Source of the DNA: Vicinamibacterales bacterium | GTDB lineage: Bacteria > Acidobacteriota > Vicinamibacteria > Vicinamibacterales > Vicinamibacteraceae | Assembly: GCA_963816265.1 (NCBI GenBank) | Contig: CAWFJQ010000003.1 | Coordinates: 1,681,620 to 1,745,619 of the forward strand | Reading direction: 5' to 3' | DNA: 64,000 bases | Part shown: one piece after another, positions 12,708 through 46,997 of the stretch | Position numbering within the stretch: position 1 is the stretch's first letter | Layout of the letters: each line of letters begins with the position of its first letter | Program-made: the position numbers and the translations under genes | The notes under the pieces: generated by a model | Told to the model about the DNA's origin: nothing | Seen by the model: the letters and a program-made list of their open reading frames with translations, nothing else | The model's database searches: none

Positions 12708-15700
12708 TCAACGATCGCGCGCGGGACGCGGCCGCCGGGCCAGCGCCTCGTTCAGCCGGGCGTCGTGGCGGTAGATGTCGTCGGCGAAGTAGACCTCGCC
12801 GTCCGCCGAGACGACGGCCGCGGTCGTGTAGAAGAGCACCACCCTGATCGGCGCCGCCAACTCCACCCGTGACGACACCGCGCCGGCCATCGCCGCCTCG
12901 ATCCGGGCCCGGTCCCAGCCCGTCTCGTCGCGCAGCACCCACTCGGCCAACGCCGTCGGGTCCTCGACCCGGACGCAGCCGTGGCTGAAGTCCCGGCGCT
13001 GCTGCTGGAACAACCCGACCGCCGGCGTGCCGTGCAGGTAGACGTCGGAGGCGTTGGGGAAGACGAATTTGACAAGGCCGAGCGCGTTGCCCGGGCCCGG
13101 TCGCTGGCGCAGCCGGAGCGTCCCGGCTCGCAGCCCGGCGAGTGCCGCCGCTGTCGCCGGGACCGCGTCGGCCTCGTCGCTCTGGCCGTCGACGATCTCG
13201 TAGTCGGCCGGGAGCCGCCGGGTCGGATCGCGCTCGAGTTCCGGCAGCATCTCCTTGAGCAGGATCGATCGCGGCACGTTCCAGTACGGCCGGAAGATCA
13301 CCGTTCGCATCAGGGCGGTGAACACCGGCGTCTCGGTGAGCAGCGCCCGTCCGACGATGACCCGCATCCGCAGCGCCGGTCGGGACGCGTCGGCGCCATC
13401 CCACGCCCCGAGCCGGAACATCGGGATGTTCAGCGCGACGATGCGCTCGTCGCCGGCATCGGGCAACCAGCGCAGCCGCTCGAGCGACAGCTCGATCTGG
13501 CGGATGCGCGCTCGCACGGGCACCGCCAGGGCGGCCCGTGTCGCACGCCCAAGCACACCGTCCGACGCCAGGCCGTGACGCGCCTGGAAGCGGCACACGC
13601 CAGCCACGAGCGTGTCGTCGTAGACGCCGGCGTCAGCGGCCGGCGGCGCATCCGCCGGCAGATCGCCGAACGCCGCCAGGCGCTGGCGCAGGGCGTTGGC
13701 CGTCTCCAGCCGGTCGCTCGGGCGGATCGCCTGCGGTACTGAAGGCCAGGCCGTGTCGGGCAGATCGCCGATGGCACGATACCGGGCCAGTTGGCGACGC
13801 AGCGCCTGGTACTGCGGGAGGGAAGGCGCCAGGGTGGCGGCAACGGCCGGCACGTCGTGCGCGGCCAACGCCGCCTGCAGGAGACCGACGAACGCATGGC
13901 GTTCGGGCTCGGCGTCGAGCGAGATGCCGAGCGACCGGGGATCGACGCGGCCCCGATGGACGTGACGGAAGTAGCGCAGCATCCCGGCGCTCAGCCGGAC
14001 GTCGAAGGCGGCCAGCCGTTCGGCGTCCGGCGCCGGCGCCGCGGCCACCGCCGCGGCCAGCTCGCGCAACGTGTCCAGGCCGTAGTCCGCCGGATCGAGC
14101 CCATCATCCGGCGCTGCGGCGAGCACGCCGATCGCCTCGCGCGCGTCTGTGGTGAGCCGTCCGGAGGCGTCGCTCCACAGGGCCAGGCCCGGTCCCGCAG
14201 CGTAGAGCGCGTCGAGCTCCGCTCGCTCGGACGCGGTGAGGCCAGCCGGGATCTGGCCAGCCGGGATCTGGCCCGTCGGGATCTGGCACGTCGGGCCGGC
14301 CCAGGCACTCGGTGGGAGCGACAGCGTCACGGCCAGCACGAGCAGGGCGTCCCGGGTCGAACGCGGCCAGCGCTTGACCGCTTGCCCCACCAGGGCCGGC
14401 AGGGCCGCCAGGCCGACGACGACCAGCCACTCGGTCCCATCGAGCGGCGTCAGTCCGATCGTCGACGCGATGCCGGGCACGGCGACCGACAGCCACTGCA
14501 GCCCCACCGCAACCGCGACGGCGAGCAGCGCGTAGGGATTGGCCAAGGCCCGCGACGGGTGCAGCACGTGGTGCGGGCTCCGGGCGTTGCCCAGATGGAA
14601 GATCTGGGTCAGGCCCAGCGTCATGAAGCAGACCGTCGTCGCGTGCCCCGGAGCACGGCCCAGCGCCCAGAGGAAGGCGGCCAGCGCCACGACCGTGATG
14701 AGCACGGCATAGAAGACGATCGAGCCGACGAACGAGGCGGACAGCAAGGCCTCGCGCGGATCCCGCGGCGGGCGCTTCATGACGTCGTGATCCGCCGGCT
14801 CCAGCGCCAGCGCCAGCGCCGGGAACGTGTCCGTGACCAGGTTCAGCCACAGGATCTGCAGCGGCAACAGCGGCAGCGGCAGCGCGGCCAGGCCCGCGAC
14901 CGTCAGCACGAGCACCTCGGCGAGGTTGCAGCTGAAGAGATAAAAGACGAACTTGCGGATGTTGTCGTAGACGACCCGGCCTTCCTCGACGGCGGCCGCG
15001 ATGGTCTCGAAGCGGTCGTCCTGCAGGACGATGGCGGCGGCCTCCTTCGCGACGTCGGTGCCGCGCCGGCCCATGGCGACGCCGACGTCCGCCTGCTTGA
15101 GGGCGGCGGCATCGTTGACGCCATCGCCCAGCATCGCGACCACGTCGCCCTGCTCCTGCAGCGACTGGACGACGCGCAGCTTGTCTTCCGGCGCGATGCG
15201 GCTGAACGCGCCCGCGGCGCTGATCCGCTCGCGCAGCTCGGCCGGCGACAGCCCCGCCAGCTCGCGGCCGTCGATCACCTCCGAGACGGCGCCGACGATC
15301 CCCAGCTCCCGGCCGACGGCGGCGGCCGTGTTGCGCTGATCACCGGTGAGCATGACGGTCCGCATGCCGGCCGCTCGCAGCCGGACGATCGTCTCCCGCA
15401 CGCCGTCGGCGGGCGGATCCATCAGCCCGACGAACCCGATGAAGGTCAGGCCGCCGAGGTGTGACTCGTCCGGCTGATCCACCGGGCCGCCCGCGACACC
15501 GAGCACGCGGAGGCCGCCGGCGGCGAGCCGCTCGTTGACGGCGACCAGCTCCGCCCGCCCAGCCTCGTCCAACGACTCGAGGCGACCGTTCCGGCGAACG
15601 TGCCGGCAGAGATCGACGATGCGGCCGGGCGCGCCCTTCACGCTGGCGACGACGGCGCCCGCTTCCCGACCGAAGGTGGCGGCCAGCTTGCGCTCGCTCG

Positions 15701-17030
15701 AGAACGGCACTATGCCAATCGGGGCGGCACCGGTCGCGTCGGCGAGACCGAGGCCGGCCGCTTCGGCGCCGCGCACCAGAGCGCGATCGACGGGATCGTC
15801 GACCGCGCCCGCGTCATCGAGGTCGGCGGCGGGCGGCCGACTGGCCCGGACCGCCACCCGCATCGCCTCCGCGCACGCCGCCGCGGGCGGCTCGCCGGTA
15901 CGGCGGCCCGGCTCGAACACCGCGTCCGGCGTCCAGACCGTGACCAGGGTCATGTCGCCGGAGGTGAGCGTTCGCGTCTTGTCGCTGCACACGACGGTGA
16001 CCGAGCCGAGGGCCTCGACGGCGGCGAGACGGCGGACCAGCGCGCGGCGCGCGGCCATGCGTCGCAGACCGATGGCGAGCGCGATGGTGGCGACCGCCGG
16101 CAGCGCCTCCGGCACCGCGGCCACCGCCAGCGCAATCCCCATCTCGAGCACGAGCGGCAGCGGCTGGCCGTGCAGCAGGTTGAGGCCCGAGGCGGCGGCC
16201 GTCATCGCGAGCACCAGCCAGACCAGGCGGCGGCCGAGCTCGTCGAGACGGCGCTCGAGGGGCGTCGGCGCCTCGGGAATCGCCGCGACGAGCGTGCTGA
16301 TGCGGCCCAGCTCGGTGCGGTCACCGGTCGCGGCGACGACCGCGCGGCCGGTGCCGGCGATGACGGTCGTGCCCTTGTAGATCATGGTGACGCGGTCGGC
16401 GAGCGGGACGCCGGGGTCGAGCACCACCGTCGCGTGCTTCGATACCGGCATCGACTCGCCGGTCAGGGCCGCTTCCGAGACGCGCAGGTCATGCGTGGTC
16501 AGCACCCGCGCGTCGGCCGGGACGCTCTGCCCGCGGCCGACCTCGATCACGTCGCCCGGGACCAGCATCTGCGCGTCGACGATCGCCGTGACGCCGTCGC
16601 GCACGACCGCGCAGCGTGAGACGTCGAGCCCCAGCAGGGCATGCATGGCGCGCCGGGCCCGCAGGTCGATGGTGAAGCCCAGCGCGGTGTTCAGCACCAG
16701 GACCGCGCCGATGGCGGTGGCCTCGGCGAGATCGCCGATGGCGAGCGAGATCGCCGTCGCGGCGATCAACAGCCACACCACGATGCTGCGCAGCTGGGCG
16801 CGGAGGATTTGGCTCGCCGAGACCGGGCTGGCCGGGGCGAGCCGATTCGGCCCGCCGCACGCCAGGCGTTCCGCCGCGACGTCCTGCGTCAGACCCTCCG
16901 CACTCGAGTCGAGGCGCGACAGGGCCTCGTACGGGGTCAGGGTGTGCCAGGCGACGACGGGCGGTGCGGTGCCGGGGCTCACGGCGGCCACAGTCGGCTC
17001 AGGAGCAGGCGGCAGGTACGGTTCCGGCAC
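12708..17030 (-). CDS. Single 1440-aa ORF: an N-terminal P-type (type II, Ca/Mg-like) cation ATPase joined in frame to a C-terminal YcbB/LdtD-like L,D-transpeptidase.
   Basis: ATPase part: cation-ATPase N-domain, TGES, phosphorylation loop CSDKTRTLT, MLTGD, GDGVNDAAAL and TM helices. The junction reads ..ALVGQAVKRWPRSTRDALLVLAVTLSLPPSAWAGP and looks like a Sec signal peptide. After it come a PG-binding domain (VCRFQARHGLASDGVLG) and a YkuD domain with the catalytic SHGCVRV. Confidence 0.8.
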   Translation of the reverse strand: MPEPYLPPAPEPTVAAVSPGTAPPVVAWHTLTPYEALSRLDSSAEGLTQDVAAERLACGGPNRLAPASPVSASQILRAQLRSIVVWLLIAATAISLAIGDLAEATAIGAVLVLNTALGFTIDLRARRAMHALLGLDVSRCAVVRDGVTAIVDAQMLVPGDVIEVGRGQSVPADARVLTTHDLRVSEAALTGESMPVSKHATVVLDPGVPLADRVTMIYKGTTVIAGTGRAVVAATGDRTELGRISTLVAAIPEAPTPLERRLDELGRRLVWLVLAMTAAASGLNLLHGQPLPLVLEMGIALAVAAVPEALPAVATIALAIGLRRMAARRALVRRLAAVEALGSVTVVCSDKTRTLTSGDMTLVTVWTPDAVFEPGRRTGEPPAAACAEAMRVAVRASRPPAADLDDAGAVDDPVDRALVRGAEAAGLGLADATGAAPIGIVPFSSERKLAATFGREAGAVVASVKGAPGRIVDLCRHVRRNGRLESLDEAGRAELVAVNERLAAGGLRVLGVAGGPVDQPDESHLGGLTFIGFVGLMDPPADGVRETIVRLRAAGMRTVMLTGDQRNTAAAVGRELGIVGAVSEVIDGRELAGLSPAELRERISAAGAFSRIAPEDKLRVVQSLQEQGDVVAMLGDGVNDAAALKQADVGVAMGRRGTDVAKEAAAIVLQDDRFETIAAAVEEGRVVYDNIRKFVFYLFSCNLAEVLVLTVAGLAALPLPLLPLQILWLNLVTDTFPALALALEPADHDVMKRPPRDPREALLSASFVGSIVFYAVLITVVALAAFLWALGRAPGHATTVCFMTLGLTQIFHLGNARSPHHVLHPSRALANPYALLAVAVAVGLQWLSVAVPGIASTIGLTPLDGTEWLVVVGLAALPALVGQAVKRWPRSTRDALLVLAVTLSLPPSAWAGPTCQIPTGQIPAGQIPAGLTASERAELDALYAAGPGLALWSDASGRLTTDAREAIGVLAAAPDDGLDPADYGLDTLRELAAAVAAAPAPDAERLAAFDVRLSAGMLRYFRHVHRGRVDPRSLGISLDAEPERHAFVGLLQAALAAHDVPAVAATLAPSLPQYQALRRQLARYRAIGDLPDTAWPSVPQAIRPSDRLETANALRQRLAAFGDLPADAPPAADAGVYDDTLVAGVCRFQARHGLASDGVLGRATRAALAVPVRARIRQIELSLERLRWLPDAGDERIVALNIPMFRLGAWDGADASRPALRMRVIVGRALLTETPVFTALMRTVIFRPYWNVPRSILLKEMLPELERDPTRRLPADYEIVDGQSDEADAVPATAAALAGLRAGTLRLRQRPGPGNALGLVKFVFPNASDVYLHGTPAVGLFQQQRRDFSHGCVRVEDPTALAEWVLRDETGWDRARIEAAMAGAVSSRVELAAPIRVVLFYTTAAVVSADGEVYFADDIYRHDARLNEALARRPRPARDR
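14241..14297. repeat. 15-bp tandem repeat (about 3.8 copies) encoding QIPxG repeats just after the internal signal peptide.
   Basis: Reads GCCAGCCGGGATCTG GCCAGCCGGGATCTG GCCCGTCGGGATCTG GCACGTCGGGCC. On the coding strand this translates as CQIPTGQIPAGQIPAG. Confidence 0.85.
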
Positions 17031-17496
17031 TGGCCGTGGCCGAATGCCGCGCCGGCGTGCCGACGCTGATCCCGGCGAGCACGTCGAGCACGGCGATCCG
17101 CAGCGGATCGGTGCCCGGCGCCTGGGCGGCCCACCGCACGATGTCGTCGATCGACACGATGCCGACCAGGACGCCCCCGTCCCCGAGCACCGGCAGGCGC
17201 CGCACGTGGTACTGCACCATCGTCAGCAAAGCCACGACGCTGTCGTCGTCCGGGGCGCAGCCAATCACCGGCTGCGTCATCACGTTGCGGGCCACCAGCG
17301 TCGACGCCGGCACGTCCCGTCTGCCGAGCGCGATGCAGGCATCACGGTCGGTGACGACGCCGACGGCCTCGCCGCGCTCGTTGACGACCGGCACGATACC
17401 GCACCCGTAGGTGCTCATGGTGTCGATGATGGAGCCCAGGTTGGTGTCGGGACCGCAGGTCCTGACCGTTCCGCCCATGATGGCCTTGATCTTCAT
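16999..17496 (-). CDS. CBS-pair domain protein.
   Basis: ATG 17496 is preceded by AAGGGAG. Reads MKIKAIMGGTVRTCGPDTNLGSIIDTMSTYGCGIVPVVNERGEAVGVVTDRD..VMTQPVIGCAPDDDSVVALLTMVQYHVRRLPVLGDGGVLVGIVSIDDI. The 3' end overlaps the ATPase start by 32 nt. Confidence 0.8.
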   Translation of the reverse strand: MKIKAIMGGTVRTCGPDTNLGSIIDTMSTYGCGIVPVVNERGEAVGVVTDRDACIALGRRDVPASTLVARNVMTQPVIGCAPDDDSVVALLTMVQYHVRRLPVLGDGGVLVGIVSIDDIVRWAAQAPGTDPLRIAVLDVLAGISVGTPARHSATASAGTVPAACS

Positions 17497-17529: not shown

Positions 17530-17545
17530 TGCAAGTCCGCCTCCA
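17530..17545 (-). promoter_or_regulatory. Sigma-54 promoter candidate upstream of the CBS and ATPase-Ldt genes.
   Basis: The reverse complement reads TGGAGGCGGACTTGCA: TGG and TTGCA at consensus spacing. It is intergenic, with the -12 element about 35 nt from ATG 17496. Confidence 0.35.
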
Positions 17546-17692
17546 AGGCCGCCCAGGGACGCCCCGTGGGCCAAGGGGTGCCGGCCCGCTGCCCCCGCCT
17601 GGCCGCTGCGCGCTATTCCCCACCCGTCGGGAACTTCCACGAAGGAACGCCCGCTACTGGGATCGCCGGCCGGCCGGCGGTGTGGCTCGTCG

Positions 17693-17708
17693 CGGCATCG
17701 CTCTTGCG
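17693..17708 (+). promoter_or_regulatory. Sigma-54 promoter candidate upstream of the 17745 gene.
   Basis: Reads CGGCATCGCTCTTGCG: GGCAT and TTGC at consensus spacing. It is divergent from the previous candidate. Confidence 0.4.
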
Positions 17709-17744: not shown

Positions 17745-18278
17745 ATGGGATACCGACTGGCGGCCGCAGGCCTCGCCGCGATACTCGCGACGTCACCGAC
17801 CGTCGCCGAGGGCCAGAGCCAGAGCCTCGGCGACGTCCAGCAGCAGCTGCGGCACGGCGACCGAATCCGGGTCGTCGCTCGCGACGGGGCCGTCGTCGAT
17901 GCCGACTTCGACGGTGTGTCCGGCTCGTCGCTCAGGGTGGTTCGCCGAGGCGCCATCGTCGAGTTCCCGGCGGCGCAGATCACACGCATCCGCAGGCCGC
18001 GTCGTGAAGCCGACGGGATCCTGATCGGGCTCGGCATCGGCGCCGGCGCAGGCCTCGGGTTCGTGGCGCTGCGCTGCAGTCAGTCGAGCGAATCGAGCGA
18101 CTGCCGTCGCGTCGGCACCCTCGTCGTGGCCGGGCCGGCCGCGGCGGCCGGGGCGGGCCTGGACGGGGCGTTCAGGAGGTTCGACACCATCTTCGAGATG
18201 CCGTCTGCGACTCGACTGCGCGTCGGGCCGATACTGACGGATCGCCGCCGGGGCATCGCGATCGCGCTGATCTACTGA
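17745..18278 (+). CDS. Hypothetical exported/membrane protein.
   Basis: Signal-like MGYRLAAAGLAAILATSPTVAEG, a Gly-rich TM segment ILIGLGIGAGAGLGFVAL, and good third-position GC. Confidence 0.6.
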   Translation: MGYRLAAAGLAAILATSPTVAEGQSQSLGDVQQQLRHGDRIRVVARDGAVVDADFDGVSGSSLRVVRRGAIVEFPAAQITRIRRPRREADGILIGLGIGAGAGLGFVALRCSQSSESSDCRRVGTLVVAGPAAAAGAGLDGAFRRFDTIFEMPSATRLRVGPILTDRRRGIAIALIY

Positions 18279-18312
18279 CGGGGCCGGGCCCGCCGGAAAT
18301 GGGAAGGACGCC

Positions 18313-18840
18313 ATGGACTTCGCGAAACGGGTCATCGGTGCGATGCGGATGGATGCGGCGACCTACGAGGCCATCGAAGCCGACCCGGGCGCGCTGCGCC
18401 AGGCCATCGTGGTCGTCGTCGGCTTCGGCGTCGCCGCCGGCGTCGGGCTGGCGGGAACCGCGCCCACCGTCCGGTCCATCGTCGTCGCCACCGCGTCCGC
18501 CCTGGTCGGCTGGCTGTCGTGGGCGTTCGTCGTCTACAACGTCGGCGTGCGCGTCTTCCCCGAACCGCAGACGAGGAGCGATGTTGCCGAAATCGCCCGG
18601 ACCATCGGCTTCAGCGCGGCGCCGGGCCTGCTGCTGGCGCTGGTGGCGGTGCCCGTGGCCCGTCCGGCCACCTTCACCGTGATCGCGGTGTGGATGCTGG
18701 CGGCGATGGTCGTCGCGGTGCGGCAGGCGCTCGACTTCACGCACCTGTCCCGGGCCCTGGCCGTCTGCCTGGCGGGATGGATCGTTGCGGCGATCTTCAT
18801 CTTCGCGCTCGGGTTCGCGTTCGGCCCGCTCGTGTCCTAA
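18313..18840 (+). CDS. Yip1-like multi-pass membrane protein.
   Basis: Reads MDFAKRVIGAMRMDAATYEAIEADPGALRQAIVVVV.., followed by 4-5 hydrophobic helices. Confidence 0.65.
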   Translation: MDFAKRVIGAMRMDAATYEAIEADPGALRQAIVVVVGFGVAAGVGLAGTAPTVRSIVVATASALVGWLSWAFVVYNVGVRVFPEPQTRSDVAEIARTIGFSAAPGLLLALVAVPVARPATFTVIAVWMLAAMVVAVRQALDFTHLSRALAVCLAGWIVAAIFIFALGFAFGPLVS

Positions 18841-18855: not shown

Positions 18856-20425
18856 TCAGGACCGGGGCAGGCGGCTCCGCGCGTCGGACAGCACGATGGG
18901 CGCGGCCGCTGACGCGTCGAGCCGCGGCCACCGGACCGGGCCGGGATCCAGGCGCAGCTGTTCGAGCACCACGCCTGCATCCGCATCGGACGCGTCGCCG
19001 ACCCGCGCCTCGACGCGGCTCGTCAGCACGGCGGGAGAGGCCTCCAGCCACAATCCGGTGAACGGAACCCCTGCGTCCGCCGCCACCGCCTCGATGGCGG
19101 CCCGATCGGCGGGGCGCAGGAAGGCGGCATCGGCGACGACGGCGTGGCCGGCCCGGAGGGCCGTCCGGGCCTGCCCGGCGAGCGCAGCGTACACGCGAGC
19201 CGAGACGTCCGCGGAGTAGCCAGCGTGGCCCAGATGGTCGGACGGCTGCGCGCCCAGCAGCGACTTGCGGATGACGTCGGAGCGCAGCACGAGGGCGCCA
19301 GGCGCCGCACCGATGTCCGGCGCCACCGCCCGCGCCACGGTCGACTTCCCGGAGCCGGACAGCCCGCCGACGGCGACGAGGCTCGCCGGCGCGGGCCGCA
19401 GGAACGCCGCGGCCATCACCAGGTATTCGCGGGCCAGCGCTTCGACCTCGTCGCGCCGCGGGCCGGCCGGCTGGAGCCGCGCCGTGGTCGCGCTCGTCTT
19501 GGCGCGCACGGCGGCGCGGCACGAGAGGAAGAGCGGCAGCAGCGCCAGGCCGTCGAGAATCGAGCGTCCGGCCGAGATACGCGCCGAGCAGCGCGTTCGC
19601 CTGGCGCCGCAGCCCTCGCCGCCACAGGTCCATCAGCAGGAAGGCCAGGTCGTAGAAGACGTCTCCGCACGAGATCGCGTCGTTGAATTCGATGGCGTCG
19701 AACGGCGTCGGGACGCCGTCGATCAGCACGATGTTGCGCAGGTGCAGGTCGCCGTGGCACTGGCGGACGAAGCCGGCCGCGCGCCGGCCATCGAGCCGCG
19801 CGGCCTGTCGTTCGAGCACCTCGAGCGCCGCGGTCGTCAGCGTCAGGCACGATCGGGCGTCGAGGATCTCCCGGCCCTGCTCGGCGAAGCCCTGGGCATT
19901 GCCCGTGATCACCCACCGCATGCCGGCGGCGCCGCCCTGATCCCGGCGGGGCTCGGCCGCGACGTGGAAGGACGCGACGACGGCGGCCAGGGACTCGGCC
20001 ATCTCAACGGTCACGGCGTCACGCGCGGCGAGTCGATCGAGCAGCGCGTCCTGCTCGAAGCGGACCATGTCGACGCACCAGTCCTCGGGCTCGCCCGTTC
20101 CATCGAGCGCCAGCCGGCCGTCCGGCTCGCGGGTGACGGCGACCACGCCGCGGTAGATGGACGGCGCGGTGCGCCGGTTGACGCGGACCTCGCCTTCGCA
20201 GGCGGCGTGCCGCAGGGCCGGCGTCGAGAAGTCCAGATAGTCGAAGGCGACGGCGCGCTTCAGCTTCAGGGCCCGCCCGCCAGCCAGGAACACGACGGCG
20301 CTGTGCGTGTCGATGCGCTCGACCGGGAGGCCACCATGGGTCGCGGGCACGGCCAGGAAGTCGATCACGGCCTGCTGCGGCTCGCCGGCGGCTGGCGCGA
20401 CGGCACGCGTCGTCGGGATGGGCAT
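18856..20425 (-). CDS. Bifunctional APH-like kinase domain plus P-loop (AAA_33-type) kinase domain; one apparent frameshift near 19510-19560.
   Basis: The N-terminal frame (20425..) contains CHGDLHLRNIVLIDG..FDAIEFND, a kinase catalytic loop. The C-terminal frame (18856..19509) contains VAVGGLSGSGKSTVAR, a Walker A motif. Confidence 0.75.
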
Positions 20426-20440
20426 CGCCTCTACGCCGGG

Positions 20441-22819: not shown

Positions 22820-22891
22820 GTCCTCGAGCGTGAGAATCAGCGAAGTCGACGGTGAGTGCGGTCATGATAGGGCTCCTCATGAACGAACCAC

Positions 22892-23515: not shown

Positions 23516-23522
23516 CGGCCCG

Positions 23523-27071: not shown

Positions 27072-27094
27072 CGCACCCTCCACCGTCATCGTCG

Positions 27095-38031: not shown

Positions 38032-38197
38032 CTAGTCCCCTGGAACCGTGATAGCTGGGACAAGTCCCGGAGCGCGGCGCCCCGCGGGCAAGGCGCGACG
38101 AGGAAGGATATTGGGCATATTCGACCGAGGAGCAACGCCGCCCCCGGGGATGCCCCGCCCGGGAATTGTTCTAGAAATCACGGTTCCAGGGGACTAG
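38032..38197. repeat. 166-bp nested-palindrome repeat element, copy E1.
   Basis: The arms are a perfect 21-bp inverted repeat: CTAGTCCCCTGGAACCGTGAT (38032-38052) and ATCACGGTTCCAGGGGACTAG (38177-38197). The core is conserved with the copies at 5319 and 56597. It lies between convergent genes, and the right arm contains the TAG stop of the 38194 gene. Confidence 0.85.
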
Positions 38198-38640
38198 GCA
38201 GCCGGGGTGTCCCGGTGGAGCTGGCCGGTGACGAGCGCGACCACAGCGGCCGAGTCGACCGGCTTGGCGACGACCGTCACCCCCTCCAGACGGCTGGCGG
38301 AGACATCGCCGCCCGAGTCGAGGACGAGGCACGGCGCCACTCCGGTCTGGGCCCGCAGGTCGCGAAGGCTGGCCGCGTCCCGGCCCTCGAGCATCTCACC
38401 GTCGACCATCACCAGATCGGGCGCGACAGCCCCGCGCAGGGCGGTCGAGGCCTCGGCCAACGACCCGCACGGCACGACGTCGACAGCGCAGCCGCGCAGC
38501 GACTCGGCGACGAACCAGCGATACAGCGCCTCCCGATCGACGAGCAGCACCGTCGCGGCAGCGGAAGGGACAGCAGGGGGATCCCGCGAGCGCGGATGGT
38601 CCGGCACGATCAGCCTCACGGCGTCCGACGCAACAGACAT
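38194..38640 (-). CDS. Stand-alone receiver-domain protein.
   Basis: ATG 38640 follows GAGGTGG. Reads ..TVLLVDREALYRWFVAESL..PDLVMVDGEM..VVAKPVD. Confidence 0.6.
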   Translation of the reverse strand: MSVASDAVRLIVPDHPRSRDPPAVPSAAATVLLVDREALYRWFVAESLRGCAVDVVPCGSLAEASTALRGAVAPDLVMVDGEMLEGRDAASLRDLRAQTGVAPCLVLDSGGDVSASRLEGVTVVAKPVDSAAVVALVTGQLHRDTPAA

Positions 38641-38768
38641 GCCACCTCGCTGGCGCAGCCTGGGACGCCAGCTGCCCGCTGGTCGCGTGATGCGCCACGA
38701 CCTGGCCGCGAGAAAGCTCGCCGAGGCGGGGATTTTTGCGACGCCCTCGGGCGGCTGCGTCGGGTGGC

Positions 38769-40163: not shown

Positions 40164-40852
40164 GACTCCTGCTCGCTCCCGTCGGCGCTGAGCAGGTAGC
40201 CGGCGCCGCGGCGGGTCCGGATCGCGTCGTGGCACGCGGTCGGCGCCAGCTTGGCCCGCAGCCGGCGGACGTAGACGTCGATGACGTTCGAGAGCGGATC
40301 GTAGGAGCTGTCCCAGACGTGCTCGGCGATGTCCTCGCGGGTGACGACCCGGCCGGCGCGCCGGGCCATGAACTCGAGGAGCGCGTACTCGCGGGTCGTC
40401 AGCGGCAACGCCGCGTCGCGGCAGAACGCCAGCTGGGCATGCGTGTCGAGCACCAGCTCGCCGACGTGCAGGCGCTCGTTCTCCGGCGGCCGGGCTCCAC
40501 GTCTGGTCAGCGCCCGGAGGCGCGCCAGCAGCTCGCCGAAGTCGAACGGCTTGAGCAGATAGTCGTCGGCTCCGCTGTCGAGCCCGGCGATGCGGGAGTC
40601 GACGGCGTCGCGGGCGGTGAGGATGAGGATCGGCGCCGTCGTGCCGGCGGCCCGGATCCGCCGGCACAGCGTCAGGCCGTCGACGTCGGGCAGGCCGAGA
40701 TCGAGGACGATGAGGTCGTAGTCGTGGTCGGCGACGAGGGCCGCGGCCCCGCGCGCGCTCTGGGCGACGTCGACCGCGTAGGCTTGTTCCCGCAGTCCCT
40801 TGGCGAGCATGCGGATGGTGAGCGGCTCGTCCTCGATCAGCAGGAGGCGCAC
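40160..40852 (-). CDS. OmpR-family response regulator.
   Basis: Reads MRLLLIEDEP..LIVLDLGLPDVDG..DDYLLKPF.., followed by a winged-helix domain LTTREYALLEFMARRAGRVVTRE..VDVYVRRLRAKL. Confidence 0.9.
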   Translation of the reverse strand: MRLLLIEDEPLTIRMLAKGLREQAYAVDVAQSARGAAALVADHDYDLIVLDLGLPDVDGLTLCRRIRAAGTTAPILILTARDAVDSRIAGLDSGADDYLLKPFDFGELLARLRALTRRGARPPENERLHVGELVLDTHAQLAFCRDAALPLTTREYALLEFMARRAGRVVTREDIAEHVWDSSYDPLSNVIDVYVRRLRAKLAPTACHDAIRTRRGAGYLLSADGSEQES

Positions 40853-40958
40853 GACGCCATTGTCTCCGAGGCCAGCGGCGATGGCGCTGTCATTCGCGGT
40901 TCATCTTGGTCCACTAGTGTTTTGCGTCACCATCGCGGGCGGGGGGGCCGGGGCGCAC

Positions 40959-41420
40959 ATGAACGAACCGTCGGTCACGCTTCGCCGCCTGCTGCTCTGG
41001 CTGCTGCTCGTGGGCCTGGCCGGCATGGCCACCGAACTGACGCTCCTCAGGCACTACGACAGCACGAGCATGGTGATACCGTTTCTCGCGATGGCCGTGG
41101 CCGCTGCAGGCGCTGCGTGGCGGCTGGTCCGGCCGTCGGCGGCCAGCGTCCGCTGGCTGCGCGCGGCGATGGTGCCGATGATGGCGGCCGGCGCGACGGG
41201 TGCCTACCTGCACTACCTGGCCGGCCTGGACTTCCAGGCCGACATGGACCCGACGCTGTCGCGGTGGCAGCTGCTCTGGAAGGTGCTGCACATGCAGGCG
41301 CCCCCGATGCTCGCGCCGGGTGTGCTGGTCCAGTTCGCGCTGCTGGGCCTCGTCTCGACCTACCGTGATCCCCTGACGGCCGCGTCCGCCGCCGATTCAG
41401 CGAGAGGAGTCCGCCCGTGA
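40959..41420 (+). CDS. Hypothetical 4-TM membrane protein; first gene of the redox operon.
   Basis: Reads MNEPSVTLRRLLLWLLLVGLAGMATELTLL.., with four hydrophobic helices. The stop overlaps the next GTG (GTGA). Confidence 0.6.
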   Translation: MNEPSVTLRRLLLWLLLVGLAGMATELTLLRHYDSTSMVIPFLAMAVAAAGAAWRLVRPSAASVRWLRAAMVPMMAAGATGAYLHYLAGLDFQADMDPTLSRWQLLWKVLHMQAPPMLAPGVLVQFALLGLVSTYRDPLTAASAADSARGVRP

Positions 41421-42101
41421 CCCAACACCTGTCGTCGACCGTCATCCCGAGCGACCAGCCGAGGCCCAGACGAGCCGCGCTCCTGGCCGCCACGATCGCC
41501 GTGGCCCTCGTGCTGCTCGCGGCCCCTGCGCAGGCACAGGTGGGCGCCGGGCTCGCCGACCTCAACGCCGTGCCCGAGGCTACGCTCGCCACGATGCCGG
41601 GCCTGACGCCGGCAATCGCCAAGGCCTTCGTCGCCGCCAGGCCCTTTGGAACGATCGTCGAGGCCAACGCCTTCCTGCTCCGGCAGTCGCTGACCGCGGA
41701 GCAGCTGGCGCTCCTCTACCAGAAGGCGTTCGTGCACGTGAACCTGAACACCGCCACGGCGCCCGAGGTCCTGCTCATCCCGCGCATCGCGCGCCGGATG
41801 GCGCACGAGTTCGAGGAATACCGGCCGTGGGTGTCGATGGCGCAATTCGACAAGGAGATCGGCAAATACGTCGATGCGGCCGAAGTCGCCCGGCTGAAGC
41901 AGTACCGTCTTCATTCCGCTCGATCTGAACACCGCGACCGACGATGCCTTCAAGACCATCCCGAACCTGCCCGCCACCATGCTGCGGGAGTTCAAGGAAT
42001 ATCGCCCCTGGAAGACCAAGGCGCAGTTCGAGAAGGAGATCGGCAAGTACGTCGGTCCGCTGGAAACGGCCCGGCTCTGGCGTTTCATGGTCATCAAATA
42101 G
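41417..42101 (+). CDS. Exported protein with helix-hairpin-helix-like repeats; one apparent frameshift near 41905-41915.
   Basis: Signal ..LVLLAAPAQAQ. Repeated modules: VNLNTATAPEVLLIPRIARRMAHEFEEYRPWVSMAQFDKEIGKYVDAAEVARL and LDLNTATDDAFKTIPNLPATMLREFKEYRPWKTKAQFEKEIGKYVGPLETARL. The second lies in the shifted frame and ends at TAG 42099-42101. Confidence 0.65.
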
Positions 42102-42104
42102 CTC

Positions 42105-43256
42105 GTGCCTGTTCGAGTGACGCCGCTGCGGCAGATGGCGGCGCTGACCTGCTGGCTGGCAGCGCTGGCCGGCGTGTCGGCGCAGTCGAGGCGGGCCGAC
42201 GTCCCGCCCGTGGCGACCGCCGCGCCGGCGCTGGCTGCGGCCGCGACCGGCGAGGAGGTCTACCGGGCGGCCTGCCTCACCTGTCACGGCCAGCGTGGCA
42301 CCGGATCGCCGCGATCGGTCGTCGGCTTCGACACGGCGCTGCCCGACTTCACGGACTGCGCCTTTGCGTCCGCGGAAGCCGATGCCGATTGGCATGCCGT
42401 CGTGCACGAGGGTGGCCGGATTCGCGGCCTGGCGCGGCGCATGCCGGCGTTCGGCGACGCGCTGAGCGACGCGAACATCGCAGCGGTCATCGGCTACGTC
42501 CGGCAGTTCTGCACCGATCGCGCCTGGCCGTCGGGTGACCTGAACCTGCCGCGAGCGATGTTCACCGAGAAGGCGTTCCCGGAGAACGAGGTCGTCTACA
42601 CGAGCACGATCGCCCGCGGCGACGATGCCGTCGTCGGCAGCCAGGTCGTCTACGAGCGCCGCATCGGCGCGCGCAACCAGATCGAGGCCGTCGTGCCGGT
42701 CGACCGGGTGAAGCACGACGGCAGCTGGCGAACGGGCCTCGGAGACGTGGCGCTCGCCTTCCGACGTACCGTCTTCGCCAGCCGCCGGAGCGGAACGGTG
42801 GCGGCTGCCGGCGCCGAGGTGGCCTTCCCCACCGGAGACGCCGCCAGCGGTCTCGGCAACGGGCACCGCGTCGTCGAGCCTTTCGCGATGGTCGGCCAGG
42901 TCCTCCCGCGCAACGCCTTCCTCCAGGTGCACGGGGGGCTCGAGATTCCCTCGGACGGGTCGGCCGCCAAGGAGGCCTACCTGCGGAGCGCCGTGGGCTT
43001 CACCTACCTGGCGGACCGGAGTTTCGGCCGCGCCTGGTCGCCGCAAGTCGAGGTACTGTTCGCCAGGCCGTTCGGCGGCTCCGCCGAATGGGATGTCGTG
43101 CCGCAGATGCAGGTGACGCTGTCGAAGATCCAGCACGTCAGCGTGGCCGGCGGCGTGCGCATCCCGCTGAGCCAGCGCGGCGAGCGCGGGGCCGCCGTCG
43201 TCAGCTATCTGCTCTGGGACTGGTTCGACGGTCCGTTCACCAGCTTCTGGAAGTAG
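42105..43256 (+). CDS. Fusion of a class I cytochrome c domain and a predicted outer-membrane beta-barrel.
   Basis: Intact 383-aa ORF. Signal ..WLAALAGVSAQS. Heme motif CLTCH with a distal RRMPAFG. After that come about 250 aa of alternating-hydrophobic strands (about 12), ending ..GPFTSFWK. Confidence 0.7.
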   Translation: MPVRVTPLRQMAALTCWLAALAGVSAQSRRADVPPVATAAPALAAAATGEEVYRAACLTCHGQRGTGSPRSVVGFDTALPDFTDCAFASAEADADWHAVVHEGGRIRGLARRMPAFGDALSDANIAAVIGYVRQFCTDRAWPSGDLNLPRAMFTEKAFPENEVVYTSTIARGDDAVVGSQVVYERRIGARNQIEAVVPVDRVKHDGSWRTGLGDVALAFRRTVFASRRSGTVAAAGAEVAFPTGDAASGLGNGHRVVEPFAMVGQVLPRNAFLQVHGGLEIPSDGSAAKEAYLRSAVGFTYLADRSFGRAWSPQVEVLFARPFGGSAEWDVVPQMQVTLSKIQHVSVAGGVRIPLSQRGERGAAVVSYLLWDWFDGPFTSFWK

Positions 43257-43258
43257 CG

Positions 43259-44938
43259 ATGCGGCGACCTCCGCGGCCACCGTCCCACGCCCTGCTCGGC
43301 TGTGCCGGCCTGGCGCTGCTGCTCGCCGTGTCGCTGCGGGCGCAGTCGCCGCCGAGCGCCGGCACGAAGAGTGGACCGCCGGCGCGCCACGCAGCGGCGG
43401 CGCCCTTCAGCCATTCCGACGACTGCGTCGCCTGTCACAACGCCCTGACCGCCCCGTCCGGCGAAGACGTGTCGATCGGCGCCGCGTGGCGGTCGACGAT
43501 GATGGCCAACTCCGCCCGCGATCCCTACTTCCACGCGAGTCTCCGCCGGGAGACGATGGACCATCCGACGCGGGCCGCCGAGATCCAGGACGAATGCGCC
43601 GCCTGCCACGTGCCGATCGGGCACCGGACGGCACATGCCGCCGGCCGTTCCGCAGTCGTGCTCCAGGCCCTCGACGGAGGCGGCACGGCCGCGGCCGCGG
43701 CCGAGCCCGACCGGCTGGCGGGCGACGGCGTCTCGTGCACCGTCTGTCACCAGATCGCGCCTGACGGACTGGGGTCGCCGGCCTCGTTCAACGGCAACTT
43801 CGTCGTGCGACCGCCGCGCGCCGACGGCGTCCGCGAAGCCTTCGGGCCGTTCGACGTGGATCCGGGCCGGCACACGATCATGCGCTCGGTCACCGGCTTC
43901 GAGCAGGTCGAAGGCGGGCACGTCCGCCAGTCGGAGCTGTGCGCCACCTGCCACACCCTCATCACCCAGGCGTTCGATCGCGACGGACGCGTGATCGGCT
44001 CGCTGCCGGAACAGATGAACTACCAGGAGTGGCGGCACAGCGCCTTCTACGACGAAGGGCGCAGCTGCCAGAGCTGTCACATGCCGAGGGCCGCGGGACC
44101 GATCCGGGTCTCGTCCGTGCTCGGCGCCGAGCGCGACGGGTTGTCCCGTCATGCCTTCGTCGGCGGCAACGCCTTCATGCTGCGGCTGCTCAACCGCTTC
44201 CGCGACGAGCTCGGCGTCGAGGCGCCGCCGGAGGCGCTCGAGGCCACCGCGCGTCTGACGGAGCGTCAGCTCAGCTACGACACGGCGACGGTCGAGGCGA
44301 CGGCGCCCCAGCGATCCGGCGACGGCATCGAGTTCGACGTCGTCGTGCGCAACCTCACCGGCCACAAGTTCCCGACCGGCTATCCGTCCCGGCGCGCCTG
44401 GCTGCACGTGACCGTGACCGACGACGGCGGCCAGGTGCTGTTCGAGTCGGGCGCGACGGCGCCGGACGGATCCATCGCCGGCAGCGACAGCGACGCCGAT
44501 GCGCAGGCCTTCGAGCCGCACTACGACGTGATCGATCGGCCGGAGCAGGTCCAGATCTACGAGTCCGTCATGGGCGACGTGGCGGCACGGCCGACGACGG
44601 GGCTGCTGTCCGCCGTGCGCTACCTGAAGGACAACCGGCTGCTGCCGCGCGGCTTCGACAAGCGGACGGCGCCCGCGGAGATTGCCGTCGTCGGGGACGC
44701 GGTCACCGACGCCTCGTTCGCCGCCGGCGCCGATCGCCTCCGCTACCGGGTGCGGATCCCCGCGGATCGCCGGCTGGGACGGGTTGCGGTGGAACTCCGG
44801 TATCAGCCGATCGCGTATCGCTGGGCCCGCAACCTCGGCACCTACGCGGCCCCTGAGCCGGCCCGCTTCGTGAGCTTCTTCGACCAGCTGGCGAGCGCCG
44901 CTTCGGTGATCGTCGCGACAGCCGCGCGGGACAACTAG
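43259..44938 (+). CDS. Exported pentaheme c-type cytochrome.
   Basis: ATG 43259 with signal ..LLLAVSLRAQS. Five CXXCH motifs: CVACH, CAACH, CTVCH, CATCH and CQSCH. The C-terminal domain contains NLTGHKFPTGYPSRRAWL. Confidence 0.85.
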   Translation: MRRPPRPPSHALLGCAGLALLLAVSLRAQSPPSAGTKSGPPARHAAAAPFSHSDDCVACHNALTAPSGEDVSIGAAWRSTMMANSARDPYFHASLRRETMDHPTRAAEIQDECAACHVPIGHRTAHAAGRSAVVLQALDGGGTAAAAAEPDRLAGDGVSCTVCHQIAPDGLGSPASFNGNFVVRPPRADGVREAFGPFDVDPGRHTIMRSVTGFEQVEGGHVRQSELCATCHTLITQAFDRDGRVIGSLPEQMNYQEWRHSAFYDEGRSCQSCHMPRAAGPIRVSSVLGAERDGLSRHAFVGGNAFMLRLLNRFRDELGVEAPPEALEATARLTERQLSYDTATVEATAPQRSGDGIEFDVVVRNLTGHKFPTGYPSRRAWLHVTVTDDGGQVLFESGATAPDGSIAGSDSDADAQAFEPHYDVIDRPEQVQIYESVMGDVAARPTTGLLSAVRYLKDNRLLPRGFDKRTAPAEIAVVGDAVTDASFAAGADRLRYRVRIPADRRLGRVAVELRYQPIAYRWARNLGTYAAPEPARFVSFFDQLASAASVIVATAARDN

Positions 44939-45039
44939 TCATCCGCCATTCATCTTGCAGTCATACGCTCGGGGTGAGGGCGGCGGAGCGGCGGTGCCTG
45001 CCGGAAGCAGCCGCGCCACGACTCACCTGGAGGATCTCG

Positions 45040-45627
45040 ATGATGTATCTGGATTGGAAGCGCGGGCTGGCCGCCGCGGTCGTTCTCTGTCTGCCGGCCG
45101 CCGGCGCATCCGGGCAGTCGATTCGCGCCTCGGCCGAGACCGCGGCCGCCCTGGCTGCGGCCGAGCCCGTCAGCGCACAGACGGCGCCGCCGCCGCAGGC
45201 CTTCGACTACAGCGACGCCTACCGCCTCCGCGCCAAGATCCACAAGGTGTCGAGCCTGGCGACGCTGCCGCTCTTCGCCACCGAAGGCATCATCGGCCAG
45301 TCGCTCTACTCGAATCCGACCGGCGGCAAGAAGGACGCGCACCTGGCCGTCGCCGCCGGGATCGGCGCGTTGTTCGCCGTCAACAGCGTGACGGGCGTGT
45401 GGAACCTGATCGAGGCGCGGAAGGATCCGAATCATCGCCAGCGTCGTCTCCTGCACGGCCTGCTGATGCTCGGCGCCGACGCCGGCTTCGTCACCACCGC
45501 GGCGCTCGCGCCCGAAAGCGAGCACGGCTCGGCCTCCGGCTCACGCGGCGCCCACCGGGCGGCGGCCTTCACGGCGATCGGGCTGGCGACCACGGGCTAC
45601 CTGGTGATGCTGCTCGGGGACCACTGA
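45040..45627 (+). CDS. Hypothetical membrane protein: signal plus about 4 TM helices.
   Basis: ATG 45040 follows CTGGAGGA. Reads MMYLDWKRGLAAAVVLCLPAAGASG.., with C-terminal helices. Confidence 0.55.
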   Translation: MMYLDWKRGLAAAVVLCLPAAGASGQSIRASAETAAALAAAEPVSAQTAPPPQAFDYSDAYRLRAKIHKVSSLATLPLFATEGIIGQSLYSNPTGGKKDAHLAVAAGIGALFAVNSVTGVWNLIEARKDPNHRQRRLLHGLLMLGADAGFVTTAALAPESEHGSASGSRGAHRAAAFTAIGLATTGYLVMLLGDH

Positions 45628-45628
45628 G

Positions 45629-46111
45629 ATGCCGGCGATTCGAGCGATCGTCGAGACCTGGGCCGCCTTCTACGCCAACTCGCCCGCCGCCCGCAGCGCC
45701 CTCACCTTCACCCACGTCGGCGCGCTGGTCGTCGGCGGCGGCTCCGCGATCGCGGCCGACCTGGGCACGGTCGGCGCGCTCCGCCGCGAGGCTCCCGCGC
45801 TGCGCGCCGAGCTGGAGCGGCTCCACGCGACCCACCGCCTGGTCACGACCAGTCTCGGGCTGGTCGTGTTGAGCGGCATCCTGCTCGTGCTCGCCGACCT
45901 CGACGCCTACCTCGCGTCGACGGCGTTCTGGATCAAGATGGGCCTGTTCGCCGCCCTCATCGTGAACGGCGCGATGGTGGTCGCGGCGTCGGCCCCGGCG
46001 CGCCAGGACAGCCCGCGCAACCGTGCCCGGCTGCGTCTGGCTGCTGTCGCCAGCCTGACGCTGTGGCTGGCGACCCTCCTCCTCGGCACGGTGGTGCCCA
46101 ATGTCCTGTAG
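45629..46111 (+). CDS. Hypothetical 4-TM membrane protein.
   Basis: Reads MPAIRAIVETWAAFYANSPAARSALTFTHVGALVVGGG.. The gap to the upstream gene is 1 nt, and it overlaps the Rieske gene. Confidence 0.55.
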   Translation: MPAIRAIVETWAAFYANSPAARSALTFTHVGALVVGGGSAIAADLGTVGALRREAPALRAELERLHATHRLVTTSLGLVVLSGILLVLADLDAYLASTAFWIKMGLFAALIVNGAMVVAASAPARQDSPRNRARLRLAAVASLTLWLATLLLGTVVPNVL

Positions 46112-46586
46112 CGAGCGGTCGCGCCGCGATTTCCTGCACCATGGAGCCTGCGCACTGCTCACGGCTGGCGCGCTGGGCCTGTCGTCGCTCGACGTCTCGG
46201 CCCTCCCGGTGTCGTTCGTGACCGCCGTGACCGCCGCGGGAGAGCGTCGCTATCCGCTTCCCGCCGCCGACGGCGTGAGCATCGATCGGGTGGCGCAGGT
46301 CATCCTCGTCCGGGCCGGGCGGAGCGTCTACGCGATGGCGCTCGCCTGCCCGCACCAGAACGCGGCGGTCAAGTGGGTGGAGAAAGAACACCGGTTCCAG
46401 TGCTCGAAGCACGACTCGCGCTACACGCCCGATGGCAGCTACACCTCGGGGCGGGCGACGCGGAACCTCGATCGTTTCCCCGTCCGGCTGGAGGGCGATA
46501 CCGTCGTCGTCGGCACCGATCACGTCTTCCGCTCGGATCAGGACAAGGGCGCCTGGAGCGCGGCTCACGTCGAGCTGCCGGCGTGA
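46101..46586 (+). CDS. Tat-exported Rieske [2Fe-2S] domain protein.
   Basis: Twin-arginine leader SRRDFLHHGACALL. Cluster ligands ACPHQ (CxH) and QCSKHDS (CxxH). Confidence 0.8.
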   Translation: MSCSERSRRDFLHHGACALLTAGALGLSSLDVSALPVSFVTAVTAAGERRYPLPAADGVSIDRVAQVILVRAGRSVYAMALACPHQNAAVKWVEKEHRFQCSKHDSRYTPDGSYTSGRATRNLDRFPVRLEGDTVVVGTDHVFRSDQDKGAWSAAHVELPA

Positions 46587-46622: not shown

Positions 46623-46997
46623 TTACTGACGGACCGCCGCGCGCTGCCGCACCCTGGCCAGCCGGCGGCCGGCGTAGGTCTGCAGGATCCGGCCGGCCGA
46701 CTCGAACGCCTCGTGCATCGCGTGCAGCCAGCGATATTCGGCGATCGGCGGGCGTTGCCCATCGGGCATCGCGGTTCCCTCCGGCTCGGATTCGTACAAC
46801 GCGACCAGCTGTTCGTTGGGAACGCTCACTTCGACGACGACCCGCAGCATCCCGGCGTCATTCGGCTCCAGGAGCACGCGGCAATCGACGATACGGCCAC
46901 AGAACCGATCGAGGCGGCCGGCCTGGTCACGCGCGTACTCCTCGAGATCGGCCCGCGCCGACATGTGGCGGAAGGTGACGTAGACGGGCGTGGACAT
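46623..46997 (-). CDS. HPF/RaiA-like ribosome-associated (sigma-54-modulation family) protein.
   Basis: Reads MSTPVYVTFRHMSARADLEEYARDQAGRLDRFCGRIVDCRVLLEP..LRVVVEVSVPNEQLVA... This is a beta-alpha-beta-beta-beta-alpha pattern typical of the family. Assigned from motif memory. Confidence 0.55.
   Translation of the reverse strand: MSTPVYVTFRHMSARADLEEYARDQAGRLDRFCGRIVDCRVLLEPNDAGMLRVVVEVSVPNEQLVALYESEPEGTAMPDGQRPPIAEYRWLHAMHEAFESAGRILQTYAGRRLARVRQRAAVRQ

Follow-up and report, generated by a model that had tools for sequence, protein, structure and literature searches.

The 64-kb window analysed here, a stretch of contig CAWFJQ010000003.1 from a Vicinamibacterales-like member of the Acidobacteriota, encodes a PAS-domain histidine kinase, an adjoining NtrC-type activator and, in intergenic regions around them, 14 -24/-12 elements of the sigma-54 type. 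The genes behind these elements include those for a universal stress protein (USP), a CBS-pair protein, two ribosome-factor-like proteins, P-type ATPases, a zinc-dependent alcohol dehydrogenase (Zn-ADH) and cytochromes c, and with the kinase and activator they probably make up a sigma-54-dependent regulon for redox or low-oxygen stress. An initial annotation, starting at position 12708, had likened this gene content to the DosR dormancy regulon of Mycobacterium tuberculosis, wired to sigma-54 promoters; the predicted regulon also reaches to the left of that position, with promoters at 6934, 9215, 9653 and 9934.

Vicinamibacteria, an abundant group of soil Acidobacteriota, have few members in culture, and their regulation is poorly known. 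Because the window has a G+C content of ~72%, genes were called from codon-position GC bias, and they were annotated with Pfam. Apparent 1-nt indels split many of the genes between reading frames (Table 1). Since intact, full-length homologues of the frameshifted genes occur elsewhere, the frameshifts are most likely errors of an unpolished long-read assembly and not signs of pseudogenes.

Predicted sigma-54 promoters and their upstream site

The motif TGGC-N8-TGC occurs 29 times in the window, against 12.7 expected. A weighted -24/-12 scan yielded 12 intergenic, correctly oriented elements, and relaxing the scan in the other intergenic regions brought two further elements, 17530 (-) and 23055 (+), for a total of 14 with the consensus tGGCAC-N5-TTGCa. 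Recurring G-rich palindromes were noticed on reading the upstream regions of these promoters. A plain search of the window for GGAANNTTCC was not significant (16 matches versus 10.5 expected), and expectation maximisation (EM) was therefore needed to find the shared motif. Run on 12 upstream regions, EM converged on GCGGAA-N-ATTCCCC, an imperfect palindrome of the form GnGGAA-N2-TTCCnC with GCGGAA-N2-TTCCGC as its palindromic version. This predicted upstream activator site (UAS) scored at least 14.7 bits in 11 of the 12 regions, and all matches of at least 11 bits across the 64 kb fall at those intergenic sites, with none in coding sequence.

A predicted UAS is paired with 13 of the 14 -24/-12 elements and lies upstream, at a distance from the -24 position of 39-95 nt (mostly 60-95) with one case of 185 nt. 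Four divergent promoter pairs each have one common central UAS, placed near-symmetrically in three of them (63/70, 63/70 and 72/73 nt) and asymmetrically between 9653 and 9934 (185 and 66 nt), and at several promoters weaker secondary sites accompany the main one at a distance of 18-22 nt. In regulons of NtrC-family activators, such sites are expected ~60-150 bp from the promoter and mostly in tandem, and the arrangement here agrees with that. At high stringency, 10 UAS-plus-promoter pairs are present in the window, compared to 0.15 expected from shuffles. These sites and their geometry are plain features of the DNA, to which the activator would bind. No sigma-70 consensus matches were found in 17-30 kb, a scan that is uninformative at this GC content and counts as weak evidence. 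The sigma-54 promoter candidates of the initial annotation hold, and are strengthened by the shared UAS at a regular distance and by its recurrence in relatives (see below).

The kinase-activator pair and its relatives

By Pfam, the activator consists of Response_reg, Sigma54_activat (E 1.5e-68), AAA_lid_14 and HTH_8 domains, the architecture of an NtrC-type enhancer-binding protein. The adjoining kinase is soluble and its PAS part lies in a different frame from the HisKA and HATPase domains; the PAS kinase and NtrC-type activator of the initial annotation are both present, the former frameshifted. The PAS domain is ~60% identical to the FAD-binding PAS-A domain of MmoS (PDB 3EWK, E 2.6e-57), followed by Aer and NifL as the next-best matches. 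FAD-PAS domains of the MmoS, NifL and Aer type are flavin redox sensors, not direct O2 sensors. This single PAS-HisKA kinase is the one found beside the activator, no globin or hybrid kinase was found, and a clear UAS plus promoter was not found at the window's own kinase/activator operon.

Activator orthologues with 67-73% identity are present in seven Vicinamibacterales/Acidobacteriota metagenome-assembled genomes (loci L001-L007), the next-best match being at 50%. As the UAS matrix derives from the window, these unseen loci served as its test. In the seven orthologous activator loci (135 kb), nine stringent UAS-plus-promoter pairs were found (shuffles averaged 0.18 and never exceeded 2), whereas 73 loci of other activators (1,149 kb) gave one pair, also the sole pair in 366 kb of high-GC controls. 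The pairs are present in all of L002-L007. Furthermore, 7/7 orthologous loci have a USP gene no more than 10 kb from the activator, versus 1/73 others. The genes behind the relatives' promoters encode single and tandem USPs, phosphoenolpyruvate (PEP) synthase, Zn-ADH, pyruvate:ferredoxin oxidoreductase (PFOR), an Nfu-like protein, an eRF1-like protein encoded after a tandem USP, and proteins homologous to the 76-aa and membrane proteins of the window. For the PEP synthase gene (PpsA), alignment of the upstream region of the window with that of L004 shows the -24/-12 core positions aligned, the spacers diverged and the UAS aligned in part only. The domains, sites, spacing and cross-genome conservation can all be read from the sequences directly.

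The partner kinases are less uniform than the activators. Those in L002, L004 and L007 carry the same FAD-type PAS as the window kinase, and those in L003 (with two PAS copies) and L006 carry a FixL-type haem PAS (1DP6, E 1.8e-40) in whose alignment the His at the proximal-ligand position is conserved. FixL-type haem PAS kinases are classic O2 sensors. The two PAS types beside an orthologous activator point to sensor-domain swapping among close relatives, and the FAD-type PAS here and the FixL-type haem PAS in two relatives would both be in keeping with oxygen or redox state as the input.

In L005 (8459-9805 and 10001-11344) and L007 (5139-6491 and 8054-9391), the activator is duplicated, in tandem or close by, with copies 65-68% identical to the query. 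Because UAS-like repeats and a TGGCAC-N5-CTGCA element lie directly 5' of the activator gene in L001 (positions 1-150), autoregulation of the activator is suggested in that genome; no such arrangement was seen 5' of the activator in the window.

Gene families behind the promoters

The families named by the initial annotation were all found where it had placed them or close by, on the basis of Pfam, PDB and AlphaFold2 (AF2) fold matches, and the proteins fall within these families or folds, with matches to 3CIS, 1Y5H, 8V9K, HPF/RaiA and LMCA1. The USP (Pfam E 9e-32) matches Rv2623 (PDB 3CIS) with E 1e-8, and the stand-alone CBS pair matches Rv2626c (1Y5H) with E 4e-5, archaeal CBS proteins scoring higher. 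The Ca-type P-type ATPase, which occupies the first ~900 aa of its open reading frame (ORF), is closest to Listeria LMCA1 (E 2e-136), then to SPCA and SERCA. With its frame repaired, the APH-like plus AAA_33 kinase aligns end to end with thousands of proteins of 510-550 aa. The Zn-ADH and the flavodoxin (Flavodoxin_5) were identified by Pfam, and both cytochromes c by their CXXCH motifs.

Two small proteins resemble ribosome factors. The 124-aa HPF-like protein matches the Pfam S30AE model at 30.4 bits (cut-off 23.7), and because its match to PDB by sequence was marginal (E 0.076), a fold comparison was needed: the AF2 model (predicted local distance difference test, pLDDT, 84.5) superposes on HPF, RaiA and YfiA with a target-normalised TM-score of 0.8-0.9 and a root-mean-square deviation of 1.4-2.2 Å. 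The eRF1-like protein is encoded by a separate gene of 128 aa, and its AF2 model (pLDDT 86) matches in Foldseek the middle domain of aRF1, eRF1 and Pelota (E ~1e-7, query-normalised TM-score 0.67-0.71) and Balon, a hibernation factor, with the Rv2629 entry 8V9K (E 2e-5) among these matches. It is a single domain and not a full-length Rv2629. The family has >2,000 metagenomic homologues, nearly all of 128 aa, with 77-93% identity among the matches listed; no Pfam or NCBIfam model matched, and some homologues are labelled "Dom34". An invariant G46-G47-E48 follows a disordered loop at the putatively equivalent position where eRF1 would carry GGQ. The homologue in L003 (15993-16352) follows a tandem USP behind a UAS and promoter, and the 128-aa protein may be a small ribosome-associated factor. 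NCBIfam gave no matches for the eRF1-like, HPF-like, APH or small proteins.

Other members of the set have less familiar features. A homologue of the membrane protein at 18313-18840 adjoins the orthologous activator in L003 and L006, and the second P-type ATPase has an intact orthologue in L003 behind a -24/-12 element. The conserved protein of ~76-90 aa with the motif GEF.E.PG.RLT, represented in the window by the 76-aa protein, in L005 at ~6576-6848 and in L006 at 8497-8676, recurs behind sigma-54 promoters adjoining the activator in several genomes and has no family match. The -24/-12 element AGGCACGTCGCTTGCA of the gene at 10119-10985 is one of the two best matches, with an equal score at 47076; the encoded protein has two internal repeats of ~85 aa (AFPPRNEPF.FR...FVD.EGDIVWTQEYLRYRVNGC.H) and no Pfam match. 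A PilB/GspE-type ATPase with a C-terminal receiver (REC) domain likewise lies behind a UAS and promoter of the regulon type. In the 1440-aa ORF at 12708-17030 (-), the Ca-type ATPase (aa 1-890) is joined to an LdtD/YcbB-like L,D-transpeptidase (aa 938-1367) with Scaffold, PG_binding_1 and YkuD domains and a linker that contains PTGQIPTGQIPAGQIPAG; the two may be genuinely fused, or an indel may have removed a stop codon. The transpeptidase homologue in L006 does not adjoin an ATPase.

Table 1. Predicted regulatory sites, the genes behind them and reading-frame damage (window positions unless a locus is named)
Feature	Position	Strand	Detail
Soluble PAS-HisKA-HATPase sensor kinase, FAD-type redox PAS	~35489-36563	+	Pfam HisKA and HATPase_c
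NtrC-type enhancer-binding protein	36636-38000	+	REC, sigma-54 AAA+ and HTH_8, by Pfam
FixL-type haem PAS kinase regions	L003 ~9235-9921; L006 ~8847-9530		
UAS GCGGGAAATTCCCC	7032-7047	.	For the nitronate monooxygenase promoter; EM motif, 22.0 bits
-24/-12 promoter TGGCCGCACTCTTGCT	6934-6949	-	Upstream of nitronate monooxygenase gene (5500-6918)
-24/-12 promoter	9215-9230	-	PilB-like T2SSE ATPase-REC gene (7064-9190); UAS 9325-9340
Strongest UAS	9853-9868	.	23.3 bits; between divergent promoters 9653-9668 (-) and 9934-9949 (+)
Cupin gene	9298-9642	-	Behind promoter 9653-9668
Repeat protein and frameshifted ABC1 kinase	10119-10985; to 12680	+	Behind promoter 9934-9949
Central UAS	17608-17623	.	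Divergent promoters 17530-17545 (-) and 17693-17708 (+); 63 and 70 nt
Second UAS	17627-17642		Beside the 17608 site
Operon, CBS-pair protein and Ca-type P2 ATPase	12708-17496	-	16999-17496 and ~14330-16991
LdtD-like domain	12708-14329	-	Read through from Ca-type ATPase
Hypothetical secreted protein, membrane protein	17745-18840	+	17745-18278 and 18313-18840
Palindromic UAS GTGGAAGATTCCAC	22968-22985	.	Divergent promoters 22892-22907 (-) and 23055-23070 (+)
Further UAS	22988; 23009		Near the 22968 site
Operon, PEP synthase and APH+AAA_33 kinase	18856-22866	-	20441-~22866 and 18856-20425
Cytochrome c and second P-type ATPase	23147-26064	+	23147-23515 and 23503-26064
Promoter TGGCACGTCCTGTGCA	27095-27110	-	Predicted to drive secreted protein (~26600-27074) and eRF1-like protein (26124-26507)
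Central UAS	28200-28215	.	Divergent promoters 28113-28128 (-) and 28288-28303 (+); 72 and 73 nt
Second UAS	28178-28193		Beside the 28200 site
Flavodoxin	27574-28041	-	Behind promoter 28113-28128
76-aa protein and dihaem cytochrome	28321-28551; 28601-29359	+	Behind promoter 28288-28303
USP and Zn-ADH unit	29400-31204	+	UAS 29400-29415, promoter 29500-29515, USP 29586-30083, Zn-ADH 30092-31204
Single-domain REC-like protein unit	38194-38741	-	UAS 38726-38741, promoter 38629-38644, gene 38194-38550
UAS, perfect palindrome GCGGAATGTTCCGC	47130-47147	-	HPF-like promoter region; second site 47151
HPF/RaiA-fold protein	46623-46997	-	Promoter 47076-47091
Frameshifts, DUF1552 and ankyrin-repeat genes	1-3800		
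Frameshift, ABC1 kinase	~11520-11590		
Frameshift, APH/AAA_33 kinase	~19505-19557 (near 19545)	-	
Frameshift, PpsA N-terminus	~22840	-	
Three frameshifts, second P-type ATPase	~24448; ~25720; ~25955	+	
Frameshift, PAS kinase	~35838	+	Frame switch mapped by tblastn

The predicted regulon is interrupted and flanked by genes of other kinds. The region 38769-46586 encodes an OmpR-type two-component system, monohaem and five-haem cytochromes, DUF2214-like membrane proteins and a Rieske protein; these genes were considered as members and dropped, and because no UAS or -24/-12 elements occur there, the region appears to form a unit of its own, with regulon members on either side. The right flank of the regulon encodes a CDF transporter and an RND/HlyD/OEP efflux system (47167-53729), followed by a plant-polysaccharide utilisation cluster (53989-64000) with two LacI-type regulators, arabinofuranosidase, GH43, esterase and GH65N-like genes, where the GC content falls to ~66-69%.

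A candidate low-oxygen circuit, its rivals and its known counterparts

In the circuit that best accounts for these observations, the soluble histidine kinase would sense redox or oxygen state through its FAD-type PAS domain and, as adjacency and domain content suggest, would phosphorylate the adjoining NtrC-type activator. The activator would in turn bind tandem GCGGAA-N2-TTCCGC palindromes, frequently spaced by 18-22 bp and located in most cases 60-95 bp 5' of -24/-12, a single central site commonly serving two divergent promoters, and would remodel sigma-54 holoenzyme into open complexes at ~14 promoters. The predicted targets are the USP and CBS pair as nucleotide-binding or energy-sensing proteins, the HPF-fold and eRF1 middle-domain-fold proteins as ribosome-hibernation-type factors, and further the Rv2004c-like APH plus P-loop kinase, PEP synthase, Zn-ADH, flavodoxin, c-type cytochromes, two P2-type ATPases, nitronate monooxygenase, a lone REC protein and the PilB-like ATPase with its fused REC domain. 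Within this circuit, we infer the phosphotransfer, the binding of the activator to DNA, the type of signal and the joint induction of the targets. What results is a concrete, testable circuit for riding out soil anoxia, with a sensor, an activator, a DNA site and ~14 promoters in front of about a dozen operons.

A number of observations weigh against a regulon of this kind. The argument proceeds from sequence throughout, and the window itself supplied the training set of the UAS matrix, so that only the tests in relatives are independent. The promoters at 17530 and 23055 are weak (below the 17.5 cut-off), that at 17530 being the weakest of the set with a score of 16.5, and the promoter at 27095 is without a good UAS, the best scoring 10.4 bits at 27206. 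The sigma-54-contact loop of the activator reads GAFTDA and not the canonical GAFTGA, a variant also present in 22/70 related activators, including 5/7 orthologous loci. The FAD-PAS domain would report redox state, not necessarily O2. No Hsp20, nitroreductase, DGAT or ferredoxin was detected by Pfam in the called ORFs of the window, and such genes could lie elsewhere in the genome. Lastly, should the frameshifts in the kinase and several targets be real, the system could be decaying.

On one rival reading, the -24/-12 matches are chance GC-rich sequence in an ordinary sigma-70 neighbourhood without common control, since GG-N10-GC is common in GC-rich DNA and some elements do not follow the consensus in full. 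This can be given almost no credence, because the stringent pairs exceed expectation both in the window (10 versus 0.15) and in independent loci (9 versus 0.18), and every element lies between genes, in the right orientation and at a regular distance; the lack of sigma-70 consensus matches in 17-30 kb points weakly the same way. It is also highly improbable that the palindrome is the site of another regulator encoded elsewhere and lies near the kinase-activator pair by coincidence. That the match of palindrome to activator is drawn from sequence, and that the window's kinase/activator operon is itself without a clear UAS and promoter, would leave room for such a regulator, but UAS-plus-promoter pairs track the orthologous activator in L002-L007, UAS-like and -24/-12 elements precede it in L001, the pairs are nearly absent around the 73 other activators, and a USP gene adjoins the activator in 7/7 loci versus 1/73.

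The identity of the signal is a separate matter, as the wiring could be as described and the input something other than O2 limitation: energy or carbon starvation, quinone/NADH redox, nitric oxide or metal stress, the genes forming a general stimulon of stationary phase or stress. MmoS/NifL/Aer-type FAD-PAS domains sense redox state and not O2 directly, USP, CBS and HPF proteins answer many stresses, and metal-efflux genes adjoin the regulon. Such an input is nonetheless unlikely, given that FixL-type haem PAS kinases accompany the orthologous activator in close relatives, that PFOR is among the relatives' targets, and that hypoxia or microoxia induces the same families in Mycobacterium, Burkholderia, Bradyrhizobium and Myxococcus. 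A redox or low-oxygen regulon under sigma-54 is therefore preferred, and its gene content can be compared with that of low-oxygen systems in other phyla.

The DosR/DevR regulon of M. tuberculosis shares with the window the USP, CBS-pair (Rv2626c), P2-type cation ATPase (CtpF) and APH plus P-loop kinase families and, at the level of fold, the HPF type (Rv0079/RafH) and the eRF1 type (Rv2629/Balon, PDB 8V9K); Rv0079/RafH has an HPF-type fold (PMC5309233). The similarities are of 27-34% identity or of fold only, and the resemblance to DosR members is one of family or fold and not of orthology. In these families and folds the DosR-like content claimed by the initial annotation stands, whereas Hsp20, nitroreductase, DGAT and ferredoxin are missing from the window, as is the NarK2 of the DosR regulon. 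The regulators also differ: the NarL-type DosR acts with the GAF-haem kinases DosS/DosT at sigma-70-type promoters, none of which are present in the window. As the initial annotation had noted, no DosR-type regulator is evident, and the ORFs searched with Pfam over the length of the window include neither a NarL/GerE-type regulator nor a GAF kinase. The Dev box GGGACT-N2-AGTCCC (up to 3 mismatches) was rejected as an operator, with 20 matches versus 33 expected.

The likeness of the APH plus AAA_33 kinase to Rv2004c rests on homologues in actinobacterial clusters of the DosRS type in Rhodococcus and Streptomyces (31-32% identity, E 2e-39 and 5e-19). The Rhodococcus plasmid cluster also encodes a GAF kinase, response regulator, USP, Zn-ADH, flavodoxin and cation ATPase and has the USP-ADH adjacency seen in the window, the match between the two flavodoxins being limited to an N-terminal motif; the Streptomyces cluster includes nitroreductase, Hsp20, PncB, USPs, ADH and cation ATPase. 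Similar sets occur in rhizobia and Burkholderia. In Bradyrhizobium, the microoxia-induced genes bll4644-blr4659 encode a USP, a host attachment (eRF1-like) protein, a CBS protein, PEP synthase and AdhP; microoxic induction, which also includes a nitroreductase, goes partly via FixK2 (PMC6515984). On a plasmid of R. leguminosarum, a 48%-identical APH plus AAA kinase gene lies beside CBS, USP, host attachment and AdhP genes; BLASTP showed no similarity between the window's eRF1-like protein and the rhizobial host attachment protein. The FixL-type haem PAS sensor of the rhizobial FixLJ-FixK2 system is shared with two relatives of the window organism, whereas the rhizobial output is a CRP/FNR-type FixK at sigma-70 promoters. 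The lxa locus of Burkholderia cenocepacia, co-regulated at low oxygen, comprises six USPs, Zn-ADH, cation ATPase and cytochrome c, low oxygen also induces a 2-nitropropane dioxygenase encoded elsewhere in the genome, and overlap of lxa with the DosR regulon was already noted by Sass et al. 2013 (PMC3721108). This locus contains Anr-like CRP-family regulators with no sigma-54 involvement described, and its Hsp20, nitroreductase, polyhydroxybutyrate genes and class II ribonucleotide reductase are not seen in the window.

Because such sets are found in Rhodococcus, Streptomyces, Rhizobium, Bradyrhizobium, Burkholderia and Myxococcus, the gene set is not peculiar to mycobacteria, and it is better described as a low-oxygen module of several phyla than as specifically DosR-like. 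A similar module is under DosRS in actinobacteria, FixLJ-FixK2 in rhizobia, an Anr-type regulator in Burkholderia and NmpR with sigma-54 in Myxococcus; the hypoxia/persistence gene set moves between phyla and exchanges its regulator on the way. A bolder proposal, put forward tentatively and with some doubt, is that the USP, CBS pair, Rv2004c-type kinase, HPF-fold and eRF1-fold factors, Ca-type ATPase, PpsA and ADH might be an ancient portable low-oxygen survival module, re-plugged repeatedly into the oxygen or redox regulator of each lineage, and that the 128-aa eRF1-like protein might be a new, minimal Balon-related hibernation or rescue factor. Vicinamibacteria would then hang the module on sigma-54 via a dedicated activator whose partner kinase swaps sensor domains. 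The two small ribosome-factor-like proteins and the Rv2004c-type kinase are conserved members whose function deserves study beyond tuberculosis research.

The closest counterpart in control is the NmpRSTU system of Myxococcus xanthus, a member of a different phylum, in which the NtrC-like NmpR drives the sigma-54 promoters of a hypoxia regulon whose targets include a CBS-domain protein, a single-domain USP, a P-type ATPase and pilR (McAllister et al. 2025, PMC11841059). Both systems have an NtrC-like activator, sigma-54 promoters and paired upstream palindromes, the latter as predicted sites in the window, and CBS, USP and P-type ATPase genes as targets, predicted ones here; a link to type IV pili is seen in pilR on one side and the PilB-like ATPase-REC protein on the other. 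The input differs, as NmpR is served by the protoglobin haem kinase NmpU via a phosphorelay of the hybrid kinase NmpS and NmpT, in contrast to a single FAD-PAS kinase and a one-step pathway in the window, with FixL-type haem PAS in relatives. The NmpR site GCGCA-N5-TGCGC was rejected as the operator, with 16 matches in the window versus 18.4 expected and none at promoters. The cbb3 oxidase, HemN and hemerythrin of the NmpR regulon are not in the window's list, which in turn has PpsA, ADH, the Rv2004c-like kinase and the HPF-fold and eRF1-fold proteins that are not among NmpR's targets. The low-oxygen module in several phyla was already known, and NmpR is the one precedent for its control by sigma-54. 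What appears new here is the acidobacterial lineage, the specific activator and its predicted operator, the apparent swapping of sensor domains and the breadth of DosR-like content, including two ribosome-factor-like proteins; the window would thus provide, after Myxococcus NmpR, a second independent case in which sigma-54, and not DosR, FNR or FixK, controls a hypoxia/persistence gene set.

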